Shown here: positions 4,833 to 42,888 of the stretch, piece after piece | How positions within the stretch are numbered: the stretch's first letter is position 1 | Layout of the letters: each line of letters opens with the position of its first letter | IMG/VR virus record: IMGVR_UViG_3300025838_000008 | Reading direction: 5' to 3' (one strand) | DNA length: 42,888 nucleotides | Origin: a virus | Position numbers and translations under genes: made by a program | Notes under the pieces: model-generated | Databases searched by the model: none | Told to the model about the DNA's origin: nothing | Seen by the model: only the letters and a program-made list of their open reading frames with translations

Positions 4833-4861
4833 ACCATACATACTGCCAGCATTGGTGTCAA
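4833..4861 (-). promoter_or_regulatory. sigma-70/SigA-type promoter for the minus-strand early operon
   Basis: On the minus strand: TTGACA (4861..4856), 17-nt spacer, TATGGT (4838..4833). About 25 nt upstream of ATG 4807. Confidence 0.6.
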
Positions 4862-4892
4862 GCATTACGCCACAATTTTTGCGTTCAGAATG

Positions 4893-4936
4893 CACAAAGC
4901 CCCCGACGCAAGGGGGTGGGCGTCGGGGGCTTTGTG
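4893..4936 (-). terminator. intrinsic terminator hairpin ending the late operon
   Basis: Perfect 17-bp inverted repeat cacaaagcccccgacgc / gcgtcgggggctttgtg with a 10-nt loop. It lies 21 nt after the stop of 4957..5217 and has no long U-tract. Confidence 0.7.
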
Positions 4937-4956
4937 TGCCGCGGTGGAACGGCGTG

Positions 4957-7161: not shown

Positions 7162-8550
7162 TTAGTCGATCGTGAGCGACGTGTTGAAGTAGACCGAAGC
7201 GGTGCTTGAGTTGATGTAGGGCTTGACTGTTCCGTCCGAGCCCACCAACAAGAAAGCGCCTTCGTAGTTTCCAGACCCCGCCGACGAGCCGTTTGCCGCG
7301 GAAGCAATGTATTGCGACCCCGAAGGCCGGTAACCGGCCGGCAACGTAAACGCGGACGTCGTGCCCGAGCCGGACCCTGCTTGGCCGTTGAATCGCAAAA
7401 TATTGCCGGTCAGTCGATACGACACCCCACCGGACCACGAGTTCGTCAACGTGGCCGAGATCCAGCCTGAGTCTTGGGCCCCTTCGACGATGTACCAGTT
7501 GGTTCCGTCGGCAAACAAAGTGACGTGAGCTCCGGTCGCCCCGAGCAAAATGCTGGTTGCGCTTGCAGCAACGCCCAAGCCCTTGATGTTTCCGCTTGCA
7601 GCCGTGACCGTAGTGGGTGCGGACCCGGTGCCGTTGGCCGACATGACGCGCACGACTGTCCCGAGGGTTGGGGTCGGCAACGTGACGGTGTACGCGCCCG
7701 ACATAAGAACGCTGTCGCCCGCCGAAGCCGTGTAGTTCGCGCTTTTTGCCGTCCAGTTGTTGACGCTTACGGTTGCAGCGGTTCCAGCGGCGTCAAAATC
7801 TGTCGTCGCGTGAGTCGCAGCCGTCCCGAGGCCGAGGCTCGATCGAGCCGCGGACGCACTCGCAAGGTCGGACAGGTTTGCGGATTTGGCGGCGGCGGCG
7901 TTCGCGGTTGCTTGGGCTGCGGATTCGGCCGCGCGCGCGGTCGCCGCTTCTGCGGTGAGGTTGGTCTGCACCGTTGCTGCGGCTCCTGCCGCATCGAAGT
8001 CCGTTGACGCGTGCGTGGCGGCAGTTCCCAGCCCGAGGCTCGACCTCGAGGCCGAAGCACTTGCCACGTCGCTCAGGTTGTTGGCAATCAAAAGCCCGGG
8101 GTTCGACACCCACGTCGGGATTGACCCGTTCGATTGCAGAATGTAGTTGGCCGACCCGATGCCGATGCGCGACCACACCGCGCCAGTGGCGTTGCTGAGG
8201 TACACCATGTCGCCCGCCGTGGTCATCGCCCACAACTTTGTTTGCATGTCGGTCAATGTCGTCGCGTCAGGAGTGTGGACAACGGGCGCGCCAGCCAAGT
8301 GCGTCTGCGCCGTGGTGCCGTCCCACCCGCGCTGGTCCACGGTCACGGTCGTCCCCGAGTACGACACAACGCGCACGGTTTCCTGCAAGTTGGCATCGCC
8401 CTGGTCGATGGTCAAAGAGAACGCGGTCCCCGACGCCGGCCACCCTGTCGTTGACACAACGGTAAACGTGGTCGCCGTGGTGGACGTGATCGCCGCGGCC
8501 AGTGTGGTCGAAACGGCCCCACCTGCGTACTGCATCTTTACGTTTGCCAC
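7162..8550 (-). CDS. tail fiber protein
   Basis: Two copies of the NLSD[VL]ASASA.RSSLGLGTAATHA.TDFDAAG motif typical of phage fibers. Ala/Thr/Ser-rich. Located between the tail genes and the lysis cassette. Confidence 0.7.
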   Translation of the reverse strand: MANVKMQYAGGAVSTTLAAAITSTTATTFTVVSTTGWPASGTAFSLTIDQGDANLQETVRVVSYSGTTVTVDQRGWDGTTAQTHLAGAPVVHTPDATTLTDMQTKLWAMTTAGDMVYLSNATGAVWSRIGIGSANYILQSNGSIPTWVSNPGLLIANNLSDVASASASRSSLGLGTAATHASTDFDAAGAAATVQTNLTAEAATARAAESAAQATANAAAAKSANLSDLASASAARSSLGLGTAATHATTDFDAAGTAATVSVNNWTAKSANYTASAGDSVLMSGAYTVTLPTPTLGTVVRVMSANGTGSAPTTVTAASGNIKGLGVAASATSILLGATGAHVTLFADGTNWYIVEGAQDSGWISATLTNSWSGGVSYRLTGNILRFNGQAGSGSGTTSAFTLPAGYRPSGSQYIASAANGSSAGSGNYEGAFLLVGSDGTVKPYINSSTASVYFNTSLTID

Positions 8551-8559
8551 TTGTATCTC

Positions 8560-10833
8560 CTAAGTAGTCAGCGAAATAAGTTTGACAGTCAATTTGCCGT
8601 TGAACCAGTCGCGGTTGTCGTTCGGGCGTTCGGGGACGAACTTGATTTGGTCGATGACCGCTTGACGAGAATACGAGCCCATTGTGAGCTGCACGACTTC
8701 GCCCGATTCTTCCAAACCCTTGAGGTACGCGTATTCGTTCCACGTGTCAAGGGATTTGGTGTCCCCGTTTATGTCGCGCACGCGGTCGGCCCACAAAAGC
8801 TGCAGCGTGATTTGGTCTTGGCGCGGAGCGACCACCAACGCTTTCAGAATGTGGCTGGTGAAGTACGGCGATTGCGTCGGGTCCGACCCTTGGGTGAGCG
8901 TGATAATCGGCATGAACCGGTCGCCCACGGTAAGGCCGGCCGAGAACGGGTTGTCGAGGCCGGTCGAACTGGTGACGGAATTGGATCCGGCGTGCGTGGT
9001 GGTGGACATGTCCTGAGCCACGACGTCATAGGAAACCGTCGCACCGTCGGGCAACGGTTCGTGCTGAATGTCTACGTCGACGAGGATCTTGGACTCAAGT
9101 GTTCCGTAGCGCACCCAACCCGGCTCCAACCAACCGGACGCGACCACACTGGTCGAGGGCACGTACAGCGTGTAAGTCCCCGAATTGTTGACCACAAAAT
9201 ACGGTTGCCCGTTGACGATGGTGACCTGCGTAGTGACGCCGGCGGTTGCGCCCACCATGTCGGTTGCGTAGGCCGGAATGCCGGGATCTGTGTATTGGCT
9301 AAGGTCGCAACGCCCCACGCCACCTACCGTCGTGCGCGATGCCCATGCTTCGGACATGTTCATGTTGGACCAGCCGAAATACCCGTACTGGCCGTAGCAC
9401 GCCACCGCCTCGACGCTGCCGGGGTCGCTGATAACAGGGCCAACGTTGAAAACGCCAAGGCTGTCCGGCTTGGACCCTTGACGAATTCCACGCGACGTTC
9501 CGAGCAGGACCGCACCGGCTTCGTAGACAATCGAGTTGATTTGTTCTCCAACCCCTAACGACGTCGCCCATACAGGGGGAGCAAGCGTAGCCCCCGAGGT
9601 CGCGCTGTCGGGGGCTACGGCCCCGATGTACGACACCGTTCCGGCGTACCCCCCAACAAGGATCGCTGTTTCACACTCGCAACCGGTGGTAAAGGTGAAC
9701 GAGGGATTGACGTGCTGGTAGATGAAAGTCGTGTTGCCGCTCGCCAGAATCTCCACGAGGTCGCGGCCAGTCGAAGCCAGCAAATGACCTTTGGCGTACA
9801 GCAACCACGTCGCAGGGTACGGAGTCGTGCCCGTGCCGTCCGTGGTGGGGTGGGATTGCGTGGTCCCGGTTGCCGAACCATCGTCCACAAATGAGGGAAT
9901 GGCCCCCGTGTAGACCAGCGTGTTCGTGCCGCGGTAAACGTTGAACGCCGTGGCGTTGGTGTTCGCTGCCCACGTCAAGGAAATGGGCGTGCCGGCAACG
10001 GTGACCGTGGCGCTAGTCGCCGCCGTTTCGTTGCCAAAAGCATCGACGGCGCTGACATAGTACGTCGTTGATCCGTCAGGAAGGTTGGTCGCGTTCTTGG
10101 TGCCGGTGGCTTCGGCGGCAACGGTCAAGCTTTGCGGAGCGGTCAGGTGCGCCGGAGTCGCGGCGGCGGTCACCGTCCACGTGCCAGCGGTTAGGACAAA
10201 GACGCCCTGGCTTCCGCACGCAAACCACAGACGCGTGCCGTCCGTTGCAAGGCTGGTGATGACGTTGGTGTTGGTGACGCCGCTGGTTACTTTGGTCCAC
10301 GTCGAAGTCCCATGCACCACGGGGGACGCGGTGTAGTAAATGTCCTTGCCGTCCGTGCGAATGATGTAGTTGCCTACCTGCGCGATCAACAAGTTCGAGG
10401 TTGACGTCGCTTCCGCGTTGGTGCCGGGGAGCAACGAAAACGAACCGTAGTTCCACACGTTGACGCCTTGTGATTTCCAAAAGCGCGTTCGGATCGACGG
10501 CAATTCTCCCGAGTGCAGGTACACGCCGGCCATTGCGAACCGGTTGTCCATGTATTTCTGACCGGCACCGAGGAACCAATTGTCTTGAGCGCGTGGGAAC
10601 AAACCCGCCGCCGACAACGTTTGCTCGCCGGGCTCAGGGGAATCGTCAATGGACTGGCGCCGAATGGGAAGCGTCGTGATTTCAGTCGCCGCGTTCGGGC
10701 CCCACTCGAGTTCGTAGGGGTGCGAGTTGATGGACACGGAGTAAACAAACGGCACTTCGCTTGGTGCCGAGCCACCCGTGAAGTAATTGAACGGGGTGTG
10801 GAAGGGATTGTGGAAGGTCTTGAACTTCGCCAC
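8560..10833 (-). CDS. large tail structural protein (tubular-tail B/nozzle-like by position), with an FN3-like segment
   Basis: ORF-track 757 aa. Its position after the 317-aa protein and before the fiber mirrors the T7-like order. The segment SLTWAANTNATAFNVYRG looks FN3-like. Confidence 0.5.
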   Translation of the reverse strand: MAKFKTFHNPFHTPFNYFTGGSAPSEVPFVYSVSINSHPYELEWGPNAATEITTLPIRRQSIDDSPEPGEQTLSAAGLFPRAQDNWFLGAGQKYMDNRFAMAGVYLHSGELPSIRTRFWKSQGVNVWNYGSFSLLPGTNAEATSTSNLLIAQVGNYIIRTDGKDIYYTASPVVHGTSTWTKVTSGVTNTNVITSLATDGTRLWFACGSQGVFVLTAGTWTVTAAATPAHLTAPQSLTVAAEATGTKNATNLPDGSTTYYVSAVDAFGNETAATSATVTVAGTPISLTWAANTNATAFNVYRGTNTLVYTGAIPSFVDDGSATGTTQSHPTTDGTGTTPYPATWLLYAKGHLLASTGRDLVEILASGNTTFIYQHVNPSFTFTTGCECETAILVGGYAGTVSYIGAVAPDSATSGATLAPPVWATSLGVGEQINSIVYEAGAVLLGTSRGIRQGSKPDSLGVFNVGPVISDPGSVEAVACYGQYGYFGWSNMNMSEAWASRTTVGGVGRCDLSQYTDPGIPAYATDMVGATAGVTTQVTIVNGQPYFVVNNSGTYTLYVPSTSVVASGWLEPGWVRYGTLESKILVDVDIQHEPLPDGATVSYDVVAQDMSTTTHAGSNSVTSSTGLDNPFSAGLTVGDRFMPIITLTQGSDPTQSPYFTSHILKALVVAPRQDQITLQLLWADRVRDINGDTKSLDTWNEYAYLKGLEESGEVVQLTMGSYSRQAVIDQIKFVPERPNDNRDWFNGKLTVKLISLTT

Positions 10834-10841
10834 TGGCCCTC

Positions 10842-11795
10842 CTAGAAGTTCGTTGAGCGGTACGGCCAGTCAGTCAATTGGCGCTCGCGCACGTCGGCCA
10901 AGCGCAAGTCGGCCGTGCGCCGGTACTCCGTCGCAGCCTGCCCGATGGTCGCCATTGACACGTCCTGATCTTCGCGAGATTGGCCCATGACGTTGAGCAT
11001 GGAACGGCGCACCATCATGGACTTGAGCAAGCGCGCGATAGCCCCGAACTTGGGAATGTCGAGGTCGCGGCTGTCAAGCCCCACCTGCGTCAGCATGTCG
11101 GTCGAATCGTTCCAACTGGTGTCGACGTCGAACGCGCACGAGTAGATGACGTTGATGTTGCCGTTGTACGCCGGTGTCGCGTCGGTGAAGTAGATGGCCC
11201 TGCCCGATGGGAACACGCTGGTGTCGGCCTTGGCGTCGTAGCGAAACGGGTATTCCTGAATGGCCTGCGTGGTGTTCGAGTTGATCATTAGGTTCCAGCC
11301 GTACAACGGGTCATACGTCGGAACTTGCTGCGCGGTTATGCGCAGCACGTCGATCACTTGGTCACTCACGGAGAAGTCGTACCCGCGCTGGTTGAGAACC
11401 ATTGTGAGCTCGGTTTGCTTGATGGCAAACACTTGCGGGCCCCACGAACGGATCTCGTCGCGGATCCGCTGCGTCACCACCGAGCGCGTCCACGGCGGGT
11501 CCACCAAAACGGACGCCCCGAGAGCAGCGGTCGCCGGCGTGGTGTTGTCCCATCCTCGAACAACGACGGCGGTGAGGGCCGAGGGGTTCGTGGTGATGAC
11601 GTAGAGGGTTTCGTCTCCTACGACCAGCGTGGAGTTCGGAACGATACCCCCAAGGTCGTAGGAGAACGAGATGGTTTCCTGCGTTCCAGCCGAAGGCGCG
11701 TCAAGGGCGGCCGCCAAAAAGTTGATTTGGTCGCGCGTGGTGCCACGGAGTTCGTCAAAGCAATCGTCCACCAACTGTTTCAGGGTGAACGACAT
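10842..11795 (-). CDS. tail/adaptor structural protein (tubular-tail A-like by position)
   Basis: ORF-track 317 aa, tightly packed within the structural module. No motif recognised. Confidence 0.4.
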   Translation of the reverse strand: MSFTLKQLVDDCFDELRGTTRDQINFLAAALDAPSAGTQETISFSYDLGGIVPNSTLVVGDETLYVITTNPSALTAVVVRGWDNTTPATAALGASVLVDPPWTRSVVTQRIRDEIRSWGPQVFAIKQTELTMVLNQRGYDFSVSDQVIDVLRITAQQVPTYDPLYGWNLMINSNTTQAIQEYPFRYDAKADTSVFPSGRAIYFTDATPAYNGNINVIYSCAFDVDTSWNDSTDMLTQVGLDSRDLDIPKFGAIARLLKSMMVRRSMLNVMGQSREDQDVSMATIGQAATEYRRTADLRLADVRERQLTDWPYRSTNF

Positions 11796-33195: not shown

Positions 33196-33455
33196 GACGC
33201 CAGCCTACGCCGAAGGGACCTCAATTTGCGGCGCTGGCGCGCGGACATGCCTCCCCACACGCCGAAATCCTCAAAGTTGACAAGGGCGCACTCAAGACAT
33301 TCATCTCGAACTGAACACATTGCGCAGATCGAAAGGGCTTCGTCGAGCGGTTGTTGGCTTGTGGGGAAAAAGATGTTGGGATCGGCGTTTTTGCATTGCG
33401 CGTCGTCGCGCCAATCGTGGTCTGAGCCTTGCGTCCAGCGGTTGCCATCGCCCAC
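33192..33455 (-). CDS. whiB: WhiB-family Fe-S transcription factor
   Basis: Four Cys (C..., CAMCSVRDEC), a GVWGG turn and a basic C-terminal tail RQRRKLRSLRRR: the canonical WhiB-like layout. Confidence 0.85.
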   Translation of the reverse strand: MGDGNRWTQGSDHDWRDDAQCKNADPNIFFPTSQQPLDEALSICAMCSVRDECLECALVNFEDFGVWGGMSARQRRKLRSLRRRLAS

Positions 33456-33464
33456 GAGCGAACC

Positions 33465-33605
33465 TTACAGGTCAAATGCTTCCTGATCGGGGCTTACTTG
33501 AGTGGGTTCGTGGCGTTCGCAGTAATACATGTCGTCAATGCACGCGCTTGCGAAGGTGCCGCACCCCTCGACGTCGCATACCGGAATGTCAAAATCGGTC
33601 ATCAT
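33465..33605 (-). CDS. small Cys-rich protein (46 aa)
   Basis: Hand-translated MMTDFDIPVCDVEGCGTFASACIDDMYYCERHEPTQVSPDQEAFDL. ATGA overlap with the upstream stop. C10/C15/C22/C29/H32 suggest a zinc site. Below the ORF-track cutoff. Confidence 0.45.
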   Translation of the reverse strand: MMTDFDIPVCDVEGCGTFASACIDDMYYCERHEPTQVSPDQEAFDL

Positions 33606-33871
33606 TTTTTGGTCTTTCGGGTTGCCATGCGTTCGTAGGAACGGTTGATGGCGGTTTCGATGATGCTTGCGACGGCTTTGTTGGCGTCGCGGTGCAGTTT
33701 GTCGCTGCGTTTGGTGGCATCACGCATTATTTTGGCAATGTCACAGTCAACCGGCATGTTTTCTAAGCGTGCCGTAATCGCCAAATCGACGAATTCCCTG
33801 GGCACGAGATTGTCCATCGAATCGTTTTTGGTGAGAGATTTCAATGCCGGCATGATTCCGTCGAAATTCAT
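33602..33871 (-). CDS. hypothetical protein, first (leaderless) gene of the late operon
   Basis: ATG 33871 lies 6 nt after the -10 hexamer of promoter 33878..33906 and has no SD. The ORF-track GTG at 33931 would lie upstream of that promoter. Confidence 0.5.
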   Translation of the reverse strand: MNFDGIMPALKSLTKNDSMDNLVPREFVDLAITARLENMPVDCDIAKIMRDATKRSDKLHRDANKAVASIIETAINRSYERMATRKTKK

Positions 33872-33877
33872 GCGGTC

Positions 33878-33906
33878 AAAGTAGCGCGTGGGAACGTGTT
33901 TGTCAA
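33878..33906 (-). promoter_or_regulatory. late-operon promoter (leaderless geometry)
   Basis: Minus strand: TTGACA (33906..33901), 17 nt, TACTTT (33883..33878), 6 nt, ATG 33871. Confidence 0.55.
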
Positions 33907-33919
33907 TGATATATTGACA
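33901..33919. promoter_or_regulatory. palindrome TGTCAAT-N5-ATTGACA shared by divergent promoters (candidate operator)
   Basis: 7-bp perfect arms. Each arm reads TTGACA in the outward direction. The central GATAT is part of the plus-strand extended -10. Confidence 0.55.
33907..33915 (+). promoter_or_regulatory. extended -10 promoter (TGATATATT) for leaderless HTH gene
   Basis: TGn-TATATT, 7 nt, then ATG 33923. No convincing -35 hexamer. Confidence 0.45.
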
Positions 33920-33922
33920 CTG

Positions 33923-34150
33923 ATGACCCACGAAATGAAGATCCGGCGCGCAAACAGCCTTTTGGCAACACGACGTCGAGCTCTTTCAGCCGCGGTGCAG
34001 GTTGCTCGAGCCGAGGGTGTGCCCTGGCGCACGATTGGTAAGTGGCTTGGGGTCAGCGGACAGGCCGCGCAGCAGCGTTTTGGGCGTGACAGTGAGAATG
34101 AGTCTCAATATTGTCAACCATCCATTGACGTGAACGACGCGCAAAGGTAG
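33923..34150 (+). CDS. helix-turn-helix regulator (Cro/repressor-like candidate)
   Basis: VPWRTIGKWLGVSGQAAQQRFG is a classic HTH/sigma-region-4-like segment. Start chosen at ATG 33923 from the promoter geometry. ATG 33935 and the ORF-track GTG 33896 are alternatives. Confidence 0.55.
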   Translation: MTHEMKIRRANSLLATRRRALSAAVQVARAEGVPWRTIGKWLGVSGQAAQQRFGRDSENESQYCQPSIDVNDAQR

Positions 34151-34159
34151 ATTGAGCTC

Positions 34160-34357
34160 ATGGCAAAGGCTCCCAAGACCTACAAGAAGCGCAAGCCCCC
34201 GCGTAAGAGCGCGAAGCAGGTGCGCCAGGAGTTGCGCGCCGAGGAAAAGGCGTGGGTCGCACAGTCGAGCGCCGTCACCGTTCGTAAGGCCACTATCAAG
34301 CGCGAGTGGGATCCGATCAAGCGCCGGTATGTGTTGCGCGAGTTGGTGAGCGCGTGA
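34160..34357 (+). CDS. hypothetical basic protein
   Basis: ORF-track 65 aa, Lys/Arg-rich N-terminus. Confidence 0.5.
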   Translation: MAKAPKTYKKRKPPRKSAKQVRQELRAEEKAWVAQSSAVTVRKATIKREWDPIKRRYVLRELVSA

Positions 34358-34494
34358 CAAACGAATTGGCACGTTTGATGGACCAACGGGCGCAGACGAT
34401 TTTGGATGACCCTAAGTATCAGAAAAGGCTGTCCTACGTTTTGGACAATCACGGCAACGACGACTTTTTTGAGGTTGTCCAACTTCCGCTTTGA
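34354..34494 (+). CDS. hypothetical small protein (46 aa)
   Basis: GTG 34354 in a GTGA overlap with the upstream stop. Sequence VTNELARLMDQRAQTILDDPKYQKRLSYVLDNHGNDDFFEVVQLPL. Confidence 0.45.
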   Translation: MTNELARLMDQRAQTILDDPKYQKRLSYVLDNHGNDDFFEVVQLPL

Positions 34495-34543
34495 TCTAGA
34501 CTGAACAGCGTTTACGAAGCGCACGTCACTTTCGAGACAGGAG

Positions 34544-34571
34544 CCCACCCTTCGGGGTGGGTTTTCTGTTT
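34544..34571 (+). terminator. rho-independent terminator
   Basis: CCCACCC-UUCG-GGGUGGG followed by UUUUCUGUUU. Confidence 0.75.
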
Positions 34572-34596
34572 GTGCGTTGGCGTTGTCGAGGGTGTC

Positions 34597-34625
34597 TTGA
34601 CACGCATGTTGCGTCGACATATTCT
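34597..34625 (+). promoter_or_regulatory. near-consensus promoter driving the ORF-poor region
   Basis: TTGACA (34597..34602), 17 nt, TATTCT (34620..34625). The spacer contains the palindrome ACGCA-TGT-TGCGT. Flanked by TGTCGA/TCGACA. Confidence 0.6.
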
Positions 34626-34631
34626 GATGCC

Positions 34632-35540
34632 CTCAGCCGGTGCAGCTGATGTGGGTGCGAATCCCCTCCGGGTACGAGCGAGTGACGCGTAGCGCCTCCT
34701 AGACCGGAAGTGTCCCCGGTTAGAGCGGGATCAAGTACCCCGCGCCTCGAGTTGAACGACAGTCCTCGTGGTGATGTGTTGGAATCCCATCGTGAGAAAC
34801 TGACCGGCTTCGGGGATGCGGTGGATTGCAAACGTCAAAAGCGTTGAGGACACTCAGGTGAACTAGATCTTCGGTGCTCGAGAACTACCTGACGCCTCGC
34901 TTCGCTCGTTGTCCTAGCGCGCCTAACGGCTTGCTCCCATGTGAAGCCAAATGAGAATGAGTCTCAAAGCCGTGGATCTTGTCGACGTCAAAGGTCGTCA
35001 CTGGGGCTTGAGAAGGCGTGTGAATGTGCCCGAATGGTGCGATCGAAACGCTCAGGATGCGAAAAATACCGAGAATTTTCGGAGGGGGACAGAACGAACA
35101 AAGCCCTGAGCGGTGAGACACATGCCGGGTTACAACACCAGACACTCAAGCAGGCGGCTCAACCTCGTGTCCGCTCAGGGCTCGGGGTCAGATGCGACTG
35201 CCACCCTCAGACACTCTCGAAACTGCAAGTCACAGCAAACTCGCAGAGTCATGTTTCACGTGGAACACCAACTGGTCACGCCACCGGTCAACACCATCGA
35301 CTCACACTCGCCTCACTCACATTCTGCTGATGAATGAGGTATGTGGGGCGCAGCCGAAATGAAGGGTCGCGGCACGCGCCGCTCCCGTCGAACACGTTGA
35401 CAGCACGCGAGCGTCGCAGACAGCAACACGCCGAGACGGTCGCCGTTGCACCCACGAACAGCACGACCGCAAACCAACCAACGCGCCCAACCCTCAGCTA
35501 GTCCAACTCGGGACAAAACCACCAGGGACTACCGAAAACA
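34632..35540 (+). ncRNA. candidate long structured non-coding transcript or 5' leader
   Basis: About 0.9 kb with only short or compositionally odd ORFs. GC3 of the longest, 34941..35330, is about 50% by my count. It lies behind a strong promoter and has several long helices (for example 35102..35182). No known RNA family recognised. Confidence 0.3.
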
Positions 35541-35541
35541 C

Positions 35542-35570
35542 TTGACAGCGCGCCAACACTATGCCAGAAT
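35542..35570 (+). promoter_or_regulatory. promoter with leaderless geometry for the plus-strand operon
   Basis: TTGACA (35542..35547), 17 nt, CAGAAT (35565..35570), 6 nt, ATG 35577. No SD upstream of the ATG. Confidence 0.5.
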
Positions 35571-35576
35571 ATACGC

Positions 35577-36023
35577 ATGACAACACACGGAGCCACCACC
35601 ACACCAACAACGCGCGCATGGAAAACAGCGCTAACCGCAAACGGATTTTACAACGTGTTCGAGGAAGACCTCGCAGGTGGGATCTGGTGCCTCCACGCCG
35701 AATTTGGCGAAGGTGGCGACAGACTCGCAGAAATACGCATCATGGGAGCGACACCCGAAACAGAACGCAGCAACTCAGAACTATGGACATACCACTACCC
35801 CACACCCCACGACACCCACACGTGTCACGCGCTCTACATCAGCAAGCCACGCGCGCAATGGACACCAGAGGAACACCAACACGGACCGGAAACGTACGAA
35901 GTACAAGACGACCCAAACGACAGCATCACACCAAACACGCCAGACGCAACCACAGCGCGCGCGATCCTACACCACGCCATACGAACCTACCAGCGCGCAA
36001 CAAAAGGAGAACTCGCCTACTAA
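35577..36023 (+). CDS. hypothetical protein (148 aa)
   Basis: All three forward frames are open here because the strand is T-poor. This frame has the only protein-like composition (…FYNVFEEDLAGGIWCLHAEFGEGGDRLAEIRIMG…) and its ATG fits the leaderless promoter. Confidence 0.55.
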   Translation: MTTHGATTTPTTRAWKTALTANGFYNVFEEDLAGGIWCLHAEFGEGGDRLAEIRIMGATPETERSNSELWTYHYPTPHDTHTCHALYISKPRAQWTPEEHQHGPETYEVQDDPNDSITPNTPDATTARAILHHAIRTYQRATKGELAY

Positions 36024-36115
36024 CAACACGTCGCGCAGTGTGCAGACACCACCGACCCACGACCGGAGCGCGACACTCTGACAACACCGTCAGAACAACA
36101 GAACAGGAAACCACA

Positions 36116-36739
36116 ATGAGCATCGACACCCAAACCACAACGACAACGCTCAGCATGAGCGCGACCGAACTACGACACCTCGCGACGATCGCGAACTACG
36201 CAAGCAAAGACGAAGCACGCCCATTACTCACCTACGTGAGACTGACGCCCAACGGAGACACGTGCGAAGCCATCACGACGGACAGTTACGTACTGGCGCG
36301 AATAATCGTCGACGTTAAAACCAGCGACCACACCAACACGACGCCTATCTACGTGCGCGCCGAACTACTAGAGCGCGCTGTAAAAACCTTCGCAAACAGT
36401 CGCACGCGCGCCACCGGAACAATCACCATCACAGACGACGGGCACAACACGACCGTTACCAGCAACAACTACCCCGACACAATCGGCGCGCCCAGCATGA
36501 CAGACACATACCCCGACGTAGATAGGTTGATCCCAAGCGCCCGAGGAATCAGCGAAGTCACCACGGGAGTAGCCCTAAACCCCCACTTTCTCGCCAAACT
36601 CGCGAAATTGTACCCGTGGAACGAAGACAAGACGAGCGGCGCCATCATCCGAACCATCACCGACGCAACACGCCCAATCGTCATCGAATCGCGCGACGGA
36701 CGGACGACCGTTCTACAAATGCCGATGCGACTTCCATAG
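36116..36739 (+). CDS. DNA polymerase III beta sliding-clamp-like protein (short form)
   Basis: ATG 36116 after AGGAAA. ...ASKDEARPLLTYVRLTP...AITTDSYVLAR (DnaN-like TDxxRLA motif) and C-terminal ALNPHFLAKLAKL...RTTVLQMPMRLP (DnaN-like ...vlMPmRl end). The upstream 185 codons of ORF 35561..36739 are discounted. Confidence 0.6.
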   Translation: MSIDTQTTTTTLSMSATELRHLATIANYASKDEARPLLTYVRLTPNGDTCEAITTDSYVLARIIVDVKTSDHTNTTPIYVRAELLERAVKTFANSRTRATGTITITDDGHNTTVTSNNYPDTIGAPSMTDTYPDVDRLIPSARGISEVTTGVALNPHFLAKLAKLYPWNEDKTSGAIIRTITDATRPIVIESRDGRTTVLQMPMRLP

Positions 36740-36790
36740 GACGAAACGCGCGCGAGCGCGTCCACTGGTAATGCCAGTGCTGATGAGTCC
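36739..36790 (+). ncRNA. type II hammerhead ribozyme, copy 1
   Basis: GGAC|GAAA|CGCGC-GCGA-GCGCG|U|C^|CACUGG-UAAUG-CCAGUG|CUGAUGA|GUCC. The core is complete. Stem III has 6 bp including A15.1-U16.1 and a GNRA loop. Stem I has 6 bp. Open stem II has 4 bp with G10.1-C11.1. Predicted cleavage is after C36762. Confidence 0.85.
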
Positions 36791-36809
36791 AAACAGGGAG
36801 ACAACAACA

Positions 36810-37166
36810 ATGACCACAACAACCAACCACACCACCGAAACGCTAGCGACACTTGCCGCCGCTATTACGTGGCACAGCGACAACGGGCACGGATGGCTAC
36901 AGATCGACGGCCACCGAGCGCCCGCACTGATGCTGTTGGCCCGCGAGTGTTCGACCGGCTACGACTACGCACACGACGGGAGTATCTACCTCGAAGAAGA
37001 TTGCTCAGTCGGGGTATTCGCTCGCACCATCAGCGCGCGCTACAACATCGACCCCGATAACGTGCGCGCGACGATCAGCGCGGCCGACGATATCTACACG
37101 AACGGAGATTCACCGGTACGCACCTACAGCCGCCTAGCCGCCGGCCGGATCGGGAAAAACTACTAA
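36810..37166 (+). CDS. hypothetical protein (118 aa)
   Basis: ATG 36810, 8 nt after AGGGAGA. The ORF-track start at 36771 lies inside the ribozyme stem I loop. Confidence 0.6.
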   Translation: MTTTTNHTTETLATLAAAITWHSDNGHGWLQIDGHRAPALMLLARECSTGYDYAHDGSIYLEEDCSVGVFARTISARYNIDPDNVRATISAADDIYTNGDSPVRTYSRLAAGRIGKNY

Positions 37167-37169
37167 CCA

Positions 37170-37220
37170 GATCGAAACGGGCTTAGCCCGTCGTCGCGTG
37201 ATGCGCGGCCTGATGAGATC
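37170..37220 (+). ncRNA. type II hammerhead ribozyme, copy 2
   Basis: GAUC|GAAA|CGGGC-UUA-GCCCG|U|C^|GUCGCG-UGAUG-CGCGGC|CUGAUGA|GAUC. Predicted cleavage is after C37192. Confidence 0.85.
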
Positions 37221-37241
37221 AGCGAACAGGGAGATACAGAA

Positions 37242-37745
37242 ATGACCACACACGAAACCCGAACCGGCGCCGAAATGGTGCGCGACGTGTTCAACGAATA
37301 CGTTGCAGCACTTGACGGAATCGACGTACTGACAAGCGCGCTTGACATGCTCGACGCACGCAACATGGAGCTAACCCTACGCAACGCGCGGACGGCTGCG
37401 CGCGCGTTCACCCAAGACCCAACCGAGCGCAAAAACGCGCTACGTGTCATCGACGACACCGAGCACGCCACCACCGAACCGGAGGACAGCGTAGCCATGG
37501 CCTATTTCGAGGACATACTCGAAGCCGTCATACACGGACAGCGCACCCTCGGCGGAGAATGGCGCGCCACCGAACTTGAATTCTTACTTGCCTACGGCGG
37601 CCCGACAGTACGCATGACCAACAACGGCAGCGCAGAATACGTACGCCTCACCGTCACATGGGCCGGCGACGAACACAGCGCGCGCGTGTACGCGCCAGCC
37701 ACGGCAGCGTTCATGAGTGAGATGCTCGACGCCTACGCCGAGTAG
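37242..37745 (+). CDS. hypothetical protein (167 aa)
   Basis: ORF track; AGGGAGA 7 nt upstream. Confidence 0.65.
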   Translation: MTTHETRTGAEMVRDVFNEYVAALDGIDVLTSALDMLDARNMELTLRNARTAARAFTQDPTERKNALRVIDDTEHATTEPEDSVAMAYFEDILEAVIHGQRTLGGEWRATELEFLLAYGGPTVRMTNNGSAEYVRLTVTWAGDEHSARVYAPATAAFMSEMLDAYAE

Positions 37746-37867
37746 CCCAGCGCGCCCAGCGCGCACGACCCCCGACCCCACCAGGCCGGAGCTCGTGCGG
37801 GCCGAGTGAGCCCGAGCAATTCGCAACGATGCGAGCAACGCAATAGCAAAACAGGGAGATGCGAGAA

Positions 37868-38431
37868 ATGGCGATACACGAAACAACAGCGGCACCGACA
37901 CCGGAAAACTGCGGTCCGCTCAACCAATGCGAGCGCTGCCGGAACCTAACCGCCGTCGAGGAACTGCGCGAGTCTGGCGACACGGTGGAACTCGACAACG
38001 GGCGCGCGATCCGGCTGACTATCGAACCGGATTACGACACCGAACTAAATGACTTCCCCGACTGCTACGGGCTGGTCGAATTCGCGCGGCGCAATCGCAA
38101 TTACGGTGGATGGGTCCGGCCCGAGGGATTCGACGGCAACGCCGAGGTAATGAGTTGCGGGAATTCCGACCCGTACTGGTGGCAACCGCCAGCAGACGTA
38201 AAGCGCGGCACTGAGGGATTCGAGAAACTGCGTCGAACGGTGCGCGAGCTTGTGGAATTCGGATTCGTCGGGGTCGTTGTGGAATTGCGAGAAACGCTTA
38301 GCGATTCTCACGGCAACCCACACGTCGTCACGGTGGACACGAATTCGTTGTGGGGGATCGAATGGGGGGTCACGGGTGACTACCTCGCCGGCACGATTCG
38401 CGACCTGGTGGACGGCTGGATAGGCGAGTAA
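37868..38431 (+). CDS. hypothetical protein (187 aa)
   Basis: ATG 37868, 8 nt after AGGGAGA; the ORF-track start at 37859 overlaps the SD. Confidence 0.6.
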   Translation: MAIHETTAAPTPENCGPLNQCERCRNLTAVEELRESGDTVELDNGRAIRLTIEPDYDTELNDFPDCYGLVEFARRNRNYGGWVRPEGFDGNAEVMSCGNSDPYWWQPPADVKRGTEGFEKLRRTVRELVEFGFVGVVVELRETLSDSHGNPHVVTVDTNSLWGIEWGVTGDYLAGTIRDLVDGWIGE

Positions 38432-39774: not shown

Positions 39775-39995
39775 TACTCGGCCACCATGACGCGCATTTC
39801 CAAACCGATGTACCGGTCGCCCTGAGCGTTGTCGAACCACTCCGACATTTCCTTGGGGGACACGACTTCGCGTTGCTCGATGGCACGCGAGCTCGAGTTG
39901 GTGAGCGCGTGCCTCCATTCGTGGTTGATGCGTACTACGGCAGTACGACAAACGTTGCATAATCCGCCGTCTGCGTCAATTTCGTGGTCAACCAT
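39774..39995 (-). CDS. hypothetical protein (73 aa)
   Basis: ATG 39995 overlaps the methyltransferase stop by 8 nt. Sequence MVDHEIDADGGLCNVCRTAV.... Confidence 0.5.
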   Translation of the reverse strand: MVDHEIDADGGLCNVCRTAVVRINHEWRHALTNSSSRAIEQREVVSPKEMSEWFDNAQGDRYIGLEMRVMVAE

Positions 39996-42139: not shown

Positions 42140-42465
42140 TGGTCCTCCCCCTCTCTGGCAAGCAGGTCGGCGCACAAGCCCGTAACTTCTCCGAACAACA
42201 CGGAACCTACGTTGAACGCCCATCTTTTAATTGTGGCCGCTTCCACTTCCACGCTCTCGCTGTCTCCCGTAGGTCCGGTGAGGGTCAGGGTGTAGGTGGT
42301 GGGGATGGGCTCCCAAACGTGCGGTGTGCGCACATAAGGTTCTCCAAAGTGATCCTCAATAATCGGTCGCCCATTTCTGTTCAAGCCGTGGAAAATGCCG
42401 ACGGTTGCTTGATTGTCCCCGTAGCGCACCTTCGTTCCTGGCTTTACTTGTGTCCAGTCGGTCAC
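42136..42465 (-). CDS. hypothetical protein (109 aa)
   Basis: ORF track. ATGA overlap with the hexapeptide-repeat gene's stop. Confidence 0.55.
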   Translation of the reverse strand: MTDWTQVKPGTKVRYGDNQATVGIFHGLNRNGRPIIEDHFGEPYVRTPHVWEPIPTTYTLTLTGPTGDSESVEVEAATIKRWAFNVGSVLFGEVTGLCADLLAREGEDQ

Positions 42466-42888
42466 TTCGTCACCTCGCGCAGCTCATATTGTTTGCCGTC
42501 GATTTCCACAATCTTTCCGGCGCACGTCGGTTCTTCCTTGACCGGCTCGAACACTCCGTCTTTGACCAGTGTGACGTAATCACCCACCTGAATTTCCGTG
42601 ATGTCCCAATCGGGGTGCTTGGTAGCAAATGCCCAGCCCGAAACAATGCGGTGGTCGCCGTACACCCGAGCGTCGCCGTACACCCAAGCGTTGCCGAACA
42701 CCCAAGCGTTGCCGTACACCCAAGCGTTGCCGAACACCTGAGCGTCGCCGTACACCTGAGCGTCGCCGTACACCTGAGCGTTGCCGTACACCCGAGCGCT
42801 GCCGTACACCTGAGCGTCGCCGTACACCCAAGCGTTGCCGTACACCCAAGCGTTGCCGTACACCCAAGCGTTGCCGAACACCTGAGCG
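42462..42888 (-). CDS. hexapeptide-repeat protein, C-terminal part (5' end lies across the junction at 505..1)
   Basis: The frame of ORF-track 42462..42881 stays open to the window end. It has 12 further [DNS]A[WQR]V[YF]G hexads, then a non-repeat 70-aa tail (…HRIVSGWAFATKHPDWDITEIQVGDYVTLVKDG…). Confidence 0.65.
   Translation of the reverse strand, partial: AQVFGNAWVYGNAWVYGNAWVYGDAQVYGSARVYGNAQVYGDAQVYGDAQVFGNAWVYGNAWVFGNAWVYGDARVYGDHRIVSGWAFATKHPDWDITEIQVGDYVTLVKDGVFEPVKEEPTCAGKIVEIDGKQYELREVTK
42657..42888. repeat. 18-bp tandem repeat array (coding), part adjacent to window end
   Basis: Same 18-nt unit as 1..205. After removing the 77-nt overlap the two parts make 360 nt, or 20 units. 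Confidence 0.9.

Follow-up and report, generated by a model that had tools for sequence, protein, structure and literature searches.

In this study, we analysed a circular-looking phage contig of 42,888 bp (42.9-kb, 59% G+C), which is called the window throughout, and within it a gene-free kilobase at 34572-35576 that carries an element of ~130 nt at 35064-35198, here termed the core. The element is previously undescribed and matches no known RNA family; that it is structured is strongly supported by its conservation in eight phages together with compensatory changes in its stem. Nearly all genes of the window lie on the minus strand, with a plus-strand island from 33896 to ~39300 enclosing the kilobase, and this gap is the sole sizeable non-coding DNA in the genome. 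A WhiB gene precedes the large terminase gene. RecE/RecT, RusA, a methylase and a clamp-like protein of half size are also encoded, and no polymerase, primase, helicase or integrase was recognised among the window-phage genes. The large terminase protein (TerL) is 26% identical to Streptomyces phage terminases, and the host group of this family of uncultured, tailed phages is probably Actinobacteria. The kilobase can be read, with about even confidence, as a control region between the late (terminase) operon and the divergent early-gene island. Eight identical copies of the phage are present in JGI, ENA and Logan assemblies, including JGI records 3300004806 and 3300006126. Since all eight, from different samples, are 100% identical over 33196-36116, microdiversity was uninformative.

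The gene-free stretch starts behind an intrinsic terminator (34540-34571, plus strand) with an 11-pair stem at 34540-34565, a UUCG loop, a T-run and a local folding z of -3.3, which closes a small plus-strand operon encoding a helix-turn-helix (HTH) protein of 84 amino acids (aa) and proteins of 65 aa and 46-62 aa. Promoter P1 (34597-34625, plus strand; TTGACA-17-TATTCT) follows with a 10/12 consensus match and a predicted +1 at ~34632, and the bases 6-8 nt past its -10 are C/T/C, so that no start codon lies at +1. At the other end, promoter P2 (35542-35570, plus strand; TTGACA-17-CAGAAT with a TGn extension, here TGc) likewise matches the consensus at 10/12 positions, and the gene behind it is considered leaderless, since its ATG at 35577 is placed exactly 6 nt after the -10. 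This gene (35577-36023, plus strand) is the first early gene and encodes a 148-aa orphan without homologues. An earlier note, made from the sequence of this stretch, had described the terminator, the near-consensus promoter without a start codon at +1 and the second promoter with its leaderless gene, and all three were borne out. Sigma-70-type sites with a 10/12 match occur only three times in 42,888 bp on both strands (P1, P2 and 4861(-)), and P1 and P2 are therefore not background noise. The third strong promoter, 4861(-) (TTGACA-17-TATGGT; within 4833-4940, minus strand), lies 35 nt after a terminator hairpin and heads the RecE/RecT recombination operon, the first gene of which encodes a small HTH protein; the layout of terminator followed by promoter is common to this site and to 34540-34625. 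Another leaderless pair was seen at 34125-34160 (TTGACG-17-TAGATT, with ATG 34160 six bases past the -10), and the gene behind it encodes a very basic 65-aa protein.

All open reading frames (ORFs) of at least 30 aa within 34570-35580 were tested for coding capacity. Their codon-usage log-odds range from -0.2 to -0.48, like known wrong frames, compared with +0.27 for the clamp gene; the stereotyped ribosome-binding site (RBS) used by the island genes, CAGGGAGA-N7-8-ATG, was found at none of them, and Pfam at E<=1 returned nothing beyond noise for any of them. The longest, a 129-aa ORF at 34941-35330, has the third-position G+C (GC3) of about one half and the biased composition ascribed to it beforehand, with a GC3 of 0.50 versus 0.70-0.74 in real genes and a richness in S/R/G/L/Q. 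Together with the ENA gene calls (L002), which leave the identical 1.16 kb empty, these results uphold the description of the stretch as ORF-poor. One JGI copy carries a '181-aa' call (window 34957-35501, L006 3080-3624) that crosses stop codons and has a length not divisible by three; because identical copies are called differently, we regard it as a gene-caller artefact. A reading of the region as a spacer with two promoters only, or as a decayed or unrecognised protein gene, could appeal to such ORFs, which JGI callers place here in some copies, to the unremarkable fold of the whole region and to its 3' third, which has the composition of the sense strand of neighbouring genes. However, the calls disagree among identical copies, all ORFs fail the tests of codon usage, RBS and Pfam, and the comparison with relatives described below revealed collinear blocks and a covarying stem in eight genomes otherwise without nucleotide similarity, as well as an indel and the loss of an AUG within the conserved block. 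With neither codon bias, an RBS or leaderless start, homologues nor a frame kept in relatives found for the region, we consider this reading largely refuted and highly improbable.

The earlier note had also proposed that the kilobase might be one large structured RNA, with long helices and internal repeats. Folding of the whole region in comparison to dinucleotide shuffles gave a z of +0.39, and sliding windows of 150 nt ranged from +1.2 to -1.7. Between 34572 and 35576 there is one perfect 12-bp inverted repeat (35102-35113/35171-35182), while a repeated k-mer family or iterons were not found in the kilobase and no AT-rich stretch was detected in the region, the GC content staying at 53-65%. 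From ~35050 onwards the composition becomes A/C-rich and T-poor, and the spacer at 35200-35541 (plus strand, 4-16% T) is predicted to be almost unstructured as RNA, with a composition like that of the downstream early genes; for the 3' third of the kilobase the T content is 4-13%. The sense strand of the early island is in itself extremely T-poor over 35050-38000, where T falls to 4-6% per 100 nt, and rich in A+C, and its RNA is predicted to be near-unstructured. Rfam 15 at the gathering threshold yielded 0 matches in the whole window, including GOLLD, ROOL, HEARO, raiA, riboswitches, ribozymes and tRNA/tmRNA. At E<=10 over 34300-35800 only noise at the terminator was obtained, the eight relatives gave nothing but a tRNA of L028 that does not fall in the core, and a separate tRNA/tmRNA search found none in the window. 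Given the unremarkable z-scores, the lack of repeats and of an Rfam match and the unstructured 3' part, an 'ornate' RNA of ~1 kb is therefore not supported, nor was a helix enclosing the core found; of the long helices and internal repeats, the one perfect inverted repeat stands, while no k-mer family exists and the overall stability is that of shuffled sequence.

This inverted repeat turned out to be part of the conserved core. The databases contain no close relatives of the phage. By blastn, adjusted for near and for distant matches, the region had no match in 50,697 phage records, and neither had the consensus motif. The clamp protein has only 3 homologues, and clamp protein and alignment scans of IMG/VR, JGI metagenome contigs and GTDB genomes were empty, but for TerL ~40 homologues were found, with identities of 29-58% that mostly fall between 47 and 58%. 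As relatives we compared the contigs of several TerL homologues and one further contig from IMG/VR. Eight genomes bear the core, namely the window, L012, L013, L014, L023, L025/L027, L028/L029 and L034, with TerL proteins that are 47-53% identical. They share a layout of terminase-side genes, a gene-free gap of ~1.0-1.3 kb and a divergently transcribed early island, which in the relatives contains clamp-like, ArdA and other small genes; in L028 the gap is ~1.6 kb and partly filled by a 190-aa or HNH gene call. Blastn between the gaps gave short collinear matches to the window at a block A (34893-34911) and at ~35064-35127, and apart from these blocks the core-bearing genomes have no other nucleotide similarity. 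An nhmmer profile of the 5' half of the core found one copy per genome, the E values being 1e-12 to 1e-15 for six genomes and 1e-5 for L028, and a covariance model found one match per genome with 30-48 bits and no match in L008, L022, L024, L026 and Immanuel3. The DNA pattern of the motif had 0 matches in metagenome and genome collections (including 185,579 GTDB genomes), and the only true match in IMG/VR was a twin of L013; six IMG/VR matches to a loose form of the pattern were rejected as noise from an RBS plus ATG. A phage attachment site (attP) or host-derived fragment is not indicated either, with no integrase among the Pfam calls and the pattern absent from the GTDB genomes.

The core is present in one copy per genome, always in the gap and always pointing toward the early island, at 450-620 nt from the first island gene, with the exception of L028, whose core has an HNH gene inserted behind it and stands at 218 nt. 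The parts of the core follow in a constant order: GAAAUnC...UUUUCGGAGGGGGACAUAACG is separated by exactly 22 nt from CACAU(G)cc, behind which come the apical sequence of 40-60 nt, the 3' arm and, after a further 7-8 nt, GAYGCGAC. In the window, core motif 1 (AAAUACCGAGAAUUUUCGGAGGGGGACAGAACGAACAA, 35064-35101, plus strand) contains the near-invariant UUUUCGGAGGGGGACAKAACG at 35076-35096. It is followed by the 5' arm of the covarying helix (AGCCCUGAGCGG, 35102-35113, plus strand), which lies within the fixed 22-nt spacer between AACG and CACAU, and by a conserved apical motif on the 5' side of the loop (GACACAUGCCG, 35117-35127, plus strand). The 3' arm (CCGCUCAGGGCU, 35171-35182, plus strand) pairs with the 5' arm over 12 bp, and the conserved motif GAUGCGAC (GAYGCGAC; 35191-35198, plus strand) follows 7-8 nt after the base of the helix, with the same spacing in 7/8 genomes and absent in L013. 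L023 carries a 1-nt deletion in the G-run of core motif 1, and CACAUG is replaced by CACAUA or CACAUC in L023, L025, L028 and L034. The indel in the G-run and the non-conserved AUG therefore argue that the conserved block is not coding, and the AUG within CACAUG was rejected as a start codon, being ATA or ATC in these 4 genomes.

Within the core, the stem sequence is wholly different between phages, yet each 5' arm pairs with its own 3' arm. The helices are AGCCCTGAGCGG/CCGCTCAGGGCT in the window (12 bp), GCCGAGCGAGCGGC/GCCGCTCGCTCGGC in L012 (14 bp), AGCAGTCGTCGTCGCC/GGCGACGACGACTGCT in L013 (16 bp) and GCAGCCGCTGA/TTAGCGGCTGC plus AAGAC/GTCTT in L025 (11 + 5 bp). L023 forms 10 bp with a 2-nt bulge plus AAGGC/GCCTT (10 + 5 bp), L028 and L034 have interrupted stems (8 + 5 bp and 7 + 4 bp, respectively), and L014 pairs GCCGCGG with CCGCGGC (7-9 bp). 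Perfect own-arm helices of 12, 14, 16 and 11 bp were equalled in at most 2 of 1000 shuffles of the downstream sequence in these four genomes, the 12-bp helix of the window being reached in 2/1000, and a 5' arm pairs less well with the downstream sequence of another phage. In a gapless alignment of 7 loop-trimmed sequences (A5), double-sided changes are found in 16/17 pairs, and 73.9% of the cells are paired, compared with 47.7% in shuffles and 31-46% in slid registers; 0/500 shuffles reached any of five covariation measures. With MAFFT, the 3' arms could not be aligned in full-length cores and the register was broken when the eighth trimmed sequence was included, which is why A5 was used for the pair counts. 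A covariance model derived from this alignment served as a detector only, its own alignment (A6) having placed the 3' half on loop sequence, and was excluded from the pair counts. Folded alone, the hairpin domains of seven genomes gave z values of -2.65 (window), -5.15, -4.84, -3.08, -3.03, -3.25 and -2.01. The loop varies between 42 and 57 nt and shows no conservation of its apical structure, except for GACAC/GUGUC or GCCG/CGGC, which some genomes have. With a loop of this length and no T-run after the 3' arm in any genome, the hairpin does not have the form of an intrinsic terminator. The alignment of related phages with covariation analysis, suggested in the earlier note as a check, here showed a core conserved in eight genomes and compensatory changes in its stem.

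Around the core, further conserved sites were observed. Block A (CGCCTCGCTTCGCTCGTTG, 34893-34911, plus strand) is single-copy in the window; in relatives it precedes the core by 160-235 nt, and in L012, L013 and L014 it is repeated 2-3 times. Promoter-like sites with good -10 elements (TAGACT, TACAAT) were seen in 6/6 relatives scanned, at 340-550 nt before the core and with its orientation, and P2-like sites precede the island genes in most relatives. A unique, near-perfect palindrome, GTTTCACGTGGAAC, is situated at 35253-35266. The 12-mer TTYCACGTGRAA, which is the core of GTTTCACGTGAAAC, is found once in the window (35254-35265) and once each in L013, L023, L025 and L034, always in the gap, and upstream of the core in 3 genomes and downstream in 2. 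As a single palindrome, conserved in sequence and changing its position, it resembles a protein-binding DNA site, and GTTTCACGTGGAAC is likely a candidate protein operator.

Since the core lies inside the transcript predicted from P1, a structured RNA or regulatory leader is the best reading of the locus. Of the corresponding proposal made beforehand, this holds for a conserved, covarying element of ~130 nt and not for the whole kilobase. We give roughly even weight to the core being a structured element in a P1-driven untranslated early RNA, akin to the Pleft RNA of the phages L5 and D29. The stem drifts by compensatory changes while the loop varies over 42-57 nt, bulges and internal loops are tolerated, and conserved loop sequence is present on one side only. 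Variable loops, interrupted stems and asymmetric loop conservation fit a folded single strand rather than a DNA palindrome bound by a dimer. In the clear helices two G-U wobbles and no A-C pairs were noted in a by-eye reading of the RNAfold helices. Furthermore, a strong promoter, P1, is aimed at the element, and two of the three strong promoters of the genome flank the region. We infer that the core is transcribed and that RNA, not DNA, would be its active form and carry its role. Several observations weigh against this interpretation. Plus- and minus-strand folds have similar energies, which leaves the strand unsettled. A single helix covaries, the remainder of the kilobase is no more stable than its shuffles, and a search for a core-enclosing or long-range helix gave none. 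A5 is loop-trimmed, and the 3' register was set for each sequence by its own best helix, which inflates the percentage of paired cells but not the diversity of pair types. The promoters in relatives are weak consensus matches, the palindrome switches sides of the core, a behaviour that fits a site in DNA more readily than a domain of RNA, and L008, a relative by its clamp protein, has a gap of ~0.9 kb without the core. Finally, the gap is the only large non-coding stretch, and packaging site and origin must therefore lie nearby.

In the model that we favour, host RNA polymerase would start at P1 (+1 ~34632) and produce an untranslated RNA, in which the conserved module would be reached after ~430-570 nt. 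This module would consist of an exposed purine-rich strand (UUUUCGGAGGGGGACAUAACG), a hairpin of 12-19 bp with an apical region that opens with GACACAUGCC, and GAUGCGAC located 8 nt past the stem. It could act in cis on the transcript running into the early genes, through processing, stabilisation or anti-termination, or it could alternatively be the active part of a non-coding RNA made early and in abundance, of the Pleft type as in L5 and D29. P2 would independently supply leaderless mRNA for the early genes, while the palindrome near the core would be the likely site of a protein operator. With somewhat less than even probability, the core may represent a new family of phage structured RNAs, composed of an exposed purine strand that resembles a Shine-Dalgarno sequence, a long hairpin with covariation and the GAYGCGAC box, and acting on the host or on RNA polymerase. 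Action on the host could, for example, consist in titrating ribosomes or an RNA-binding factor, and to our knowledge no RNA family with a role on host or RNA polymerase of this kind has been described so far. In this reading, the element would be expressed from the strongest early promoter of an uncultured, freshwater phage family.

Short conserved boxes next to hairpins are familiar from the antitermination RNAs of lambdoid phages, of which HK022 put comprises two hairpins of ~70 nt in total and lambda nut, with boxA and boxB, a 15-nt boxB. As in put and nut, an early-operon leader contains a short conserved single-stranded box together with a hairpin specific to each phage, and the stem drifts while the structure is kept. 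In contrast to put, where two adjacent stem-loops of ~70 nt lie just past the early promoter, the window has a single long hairpin 430 nt from P1, with one stem of 12-19 bp and an apical region of 40-60 nt. No N-like protein was identified in the window phage, and the terminator scan found no terminator between the core and the early genes.

As a functional analogue, the closest case is that of L5, D29 and StarStuff, in which an ORF-free RNA of ~500 nt between Pleft and the first early gene is very abundant, stable, processed and toxic (PMC5712189). As in these phages, several hundred bases free of ORFs separate a strong early promoter of the sigma-A type from the first early gene in the window, and the shared feature, a strong early promoter with ~500 nt without ORFs, is a resemblance in architecture only. 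As in the Pleft unit of cluster A mycobacteriophages, the unit adjoins the terminase end of the circularised genome, and the host group is probably Actinobacteria in both. In contrast, blastn against the 50,697 phage records gave no sequence similarity to Pleft RNA, the second promoter P2 separates the unit from the genes here, and the L5 RNA has no reported covarying hairpin core.

Taken jointly, the possibilities that the core is a DNA hairpin site for packaging or for replication form a less probable but substantial alternative, and what remains of our expectation beside the RNA and DNA readings belongs to other explanations. For packaging, the core would be a cis-site at which terminase recognises or cuts the DNA, or a boundary of terminal repeats, with the hairpin forming during processing of the ends. 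The core precedes the large terminase gene by 1.1-2.2 kb and lies in the sole large gap without coding sequence, the TerL of this family has an N-terminal HTH domain (PF13384/PF13518), and a near-invariant 21-nt motif across terminases of 50% identity is what is expected of a cut site. The Streptomyces phage Immanuel3 (Beephvirinae; NC_048686, L030/L031) shares the arrangement of early genes, long gap and terminase, has G-run and C-run motifs and GGACAT-like repeats in its gap, and its physical ends (275-bp direct terminal repeats) fall inside the equivalent gap. The boundaries of these repeats (GTCCCATCTCCCTC, GGGAGGGGGGAGTG, with GGACATG nearby) are loosely like GTCCCCCTCC, GGACAT and GACACATG of the core. 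However, this likeness is short, based on G- and C-runs and by eye only, covariance model R1 finds nothing in Immanuel3, and its TerL is only 26% identical. Furthermore, no contig of a relative ends at the core, though contig ends are uninformative on termini, and phage-specific stems with variable loops of 42-57 nt are not a known feature of terminase sites. We consider a packaging site unlikely. In Immanuel3 itself, non-coding sequence extends over 678 nt before TerL and over 1,480 nt at the right end, and two near-identical TTGACA promoters stand ~500 nt before its first early gene, with an ORF-free leader behind them. Early leaders of this long, ORF-free kind may be common in this terminase lineage.

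An origin of replication had likewise been among the roles suggested beforehand. In its iteron form, with several direct repeats of 15-22 bp beside an AT-rich stretch, it found no counterpart here, as there are no repeated k-mers, and GC content stays at 53-65% with no AT-rich unwinding element. What is left is the quite unlikely case that the core is, or is part of, an origin that is primed by transcription, through an R-loop from the G-rich P1 transcript, or that works as a single-stranded DNA hairpin with a primosome or a nick of the HUH type. Only the clamp-like protein, RecE/RecT, RusA and the methylase were found in the phage, and with no phage polymerase, primase, helicase or initiator recognised, initiation must use host functions; many early genes are, however, unannotated, so that the phage may have an initiator with another site of action. 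The G-run is preceded, at a distance of 450 nt, by a strong promoter. A promoter a few hundred nucleotides upstream of a conserved G-run, with host enzymes only, is also found in ColE1 RNA II and mitochondrial CSB II, yet the G-run is only 5-6 G here and the element does not belong to this class. The maximum of the cumulative GC-skew in the window is 27 nt from the core, and the minimum of the cumulative AT-skew lies 78-278 nt upstream of the core in 6/6 relatives, but a skew switch is expected at any boundary of divergent transcription and the skew is therefore weak evidence. In oriT and Rep origins, a hairpin is combined with a nick motif at a fixed distance from the stem, and the fixed 8-nt distance between stem and GAYGCGAC resembles this geometry, while no Rep or relaxase gene was seen in the window phage. 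The sole tandem repeat of the genome, an 18-bp array of ~24 copies across the contig junction (1-210 and 42657-42888), was rejected as the origin, since it is coding. The minus-strand ORF 42462-42881 starts with (V/F)YGNA(W/Q) hexapeptide repeats and matches phrog_7964/5070, and the assembly break falls inside the array. In the clamp-related contigs without the core, L008 (9560-9720) and L010 (1-120), tandem TGTGGAAAAG and CCCTACAGGGA repeats and an AT-rich stretch occupy the same gap, possibly as an alternative of the iteron type.

In actinobacteriophages, early promoters are repeatedly followed by long leaders without ORFs, for example in L5, D29 and Immanuel3. The leader described here differs in that a compact core was kept while its surroundings diverged, with a stem that carries compensatory substitutions. 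The ~130-nt core is a defined and testable object for probing, binding assays and covariance-model searches. If it acts as RNA, it would add to the RNA motifs known from phages and provide an entry to the early takeover of the host, and if it acts as DNA, it would mark the site of packaging or replication in phages that are known as a family from metagenomes only and would help to orient and complete such genomes.

Some minor observations concern the relatives and the assemblies. At 3864-4457 of L028/L029, in the gap after the core, identical sequence is called differently, as an HNH gene in L029 and, on the opposite strand, as a 190-aa gene in L028, and a tRNA gene lies at 5241-5312 of L028, in the gap near the terminase-side genes. 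The terminase of L023 contains a LAGLIDADG intein (8001-10997). Two independent Logan contigs (SRR5260927 and SRR5204520) both stop at window position 39937, which suggests a strain-variable junction or repeat at this site.

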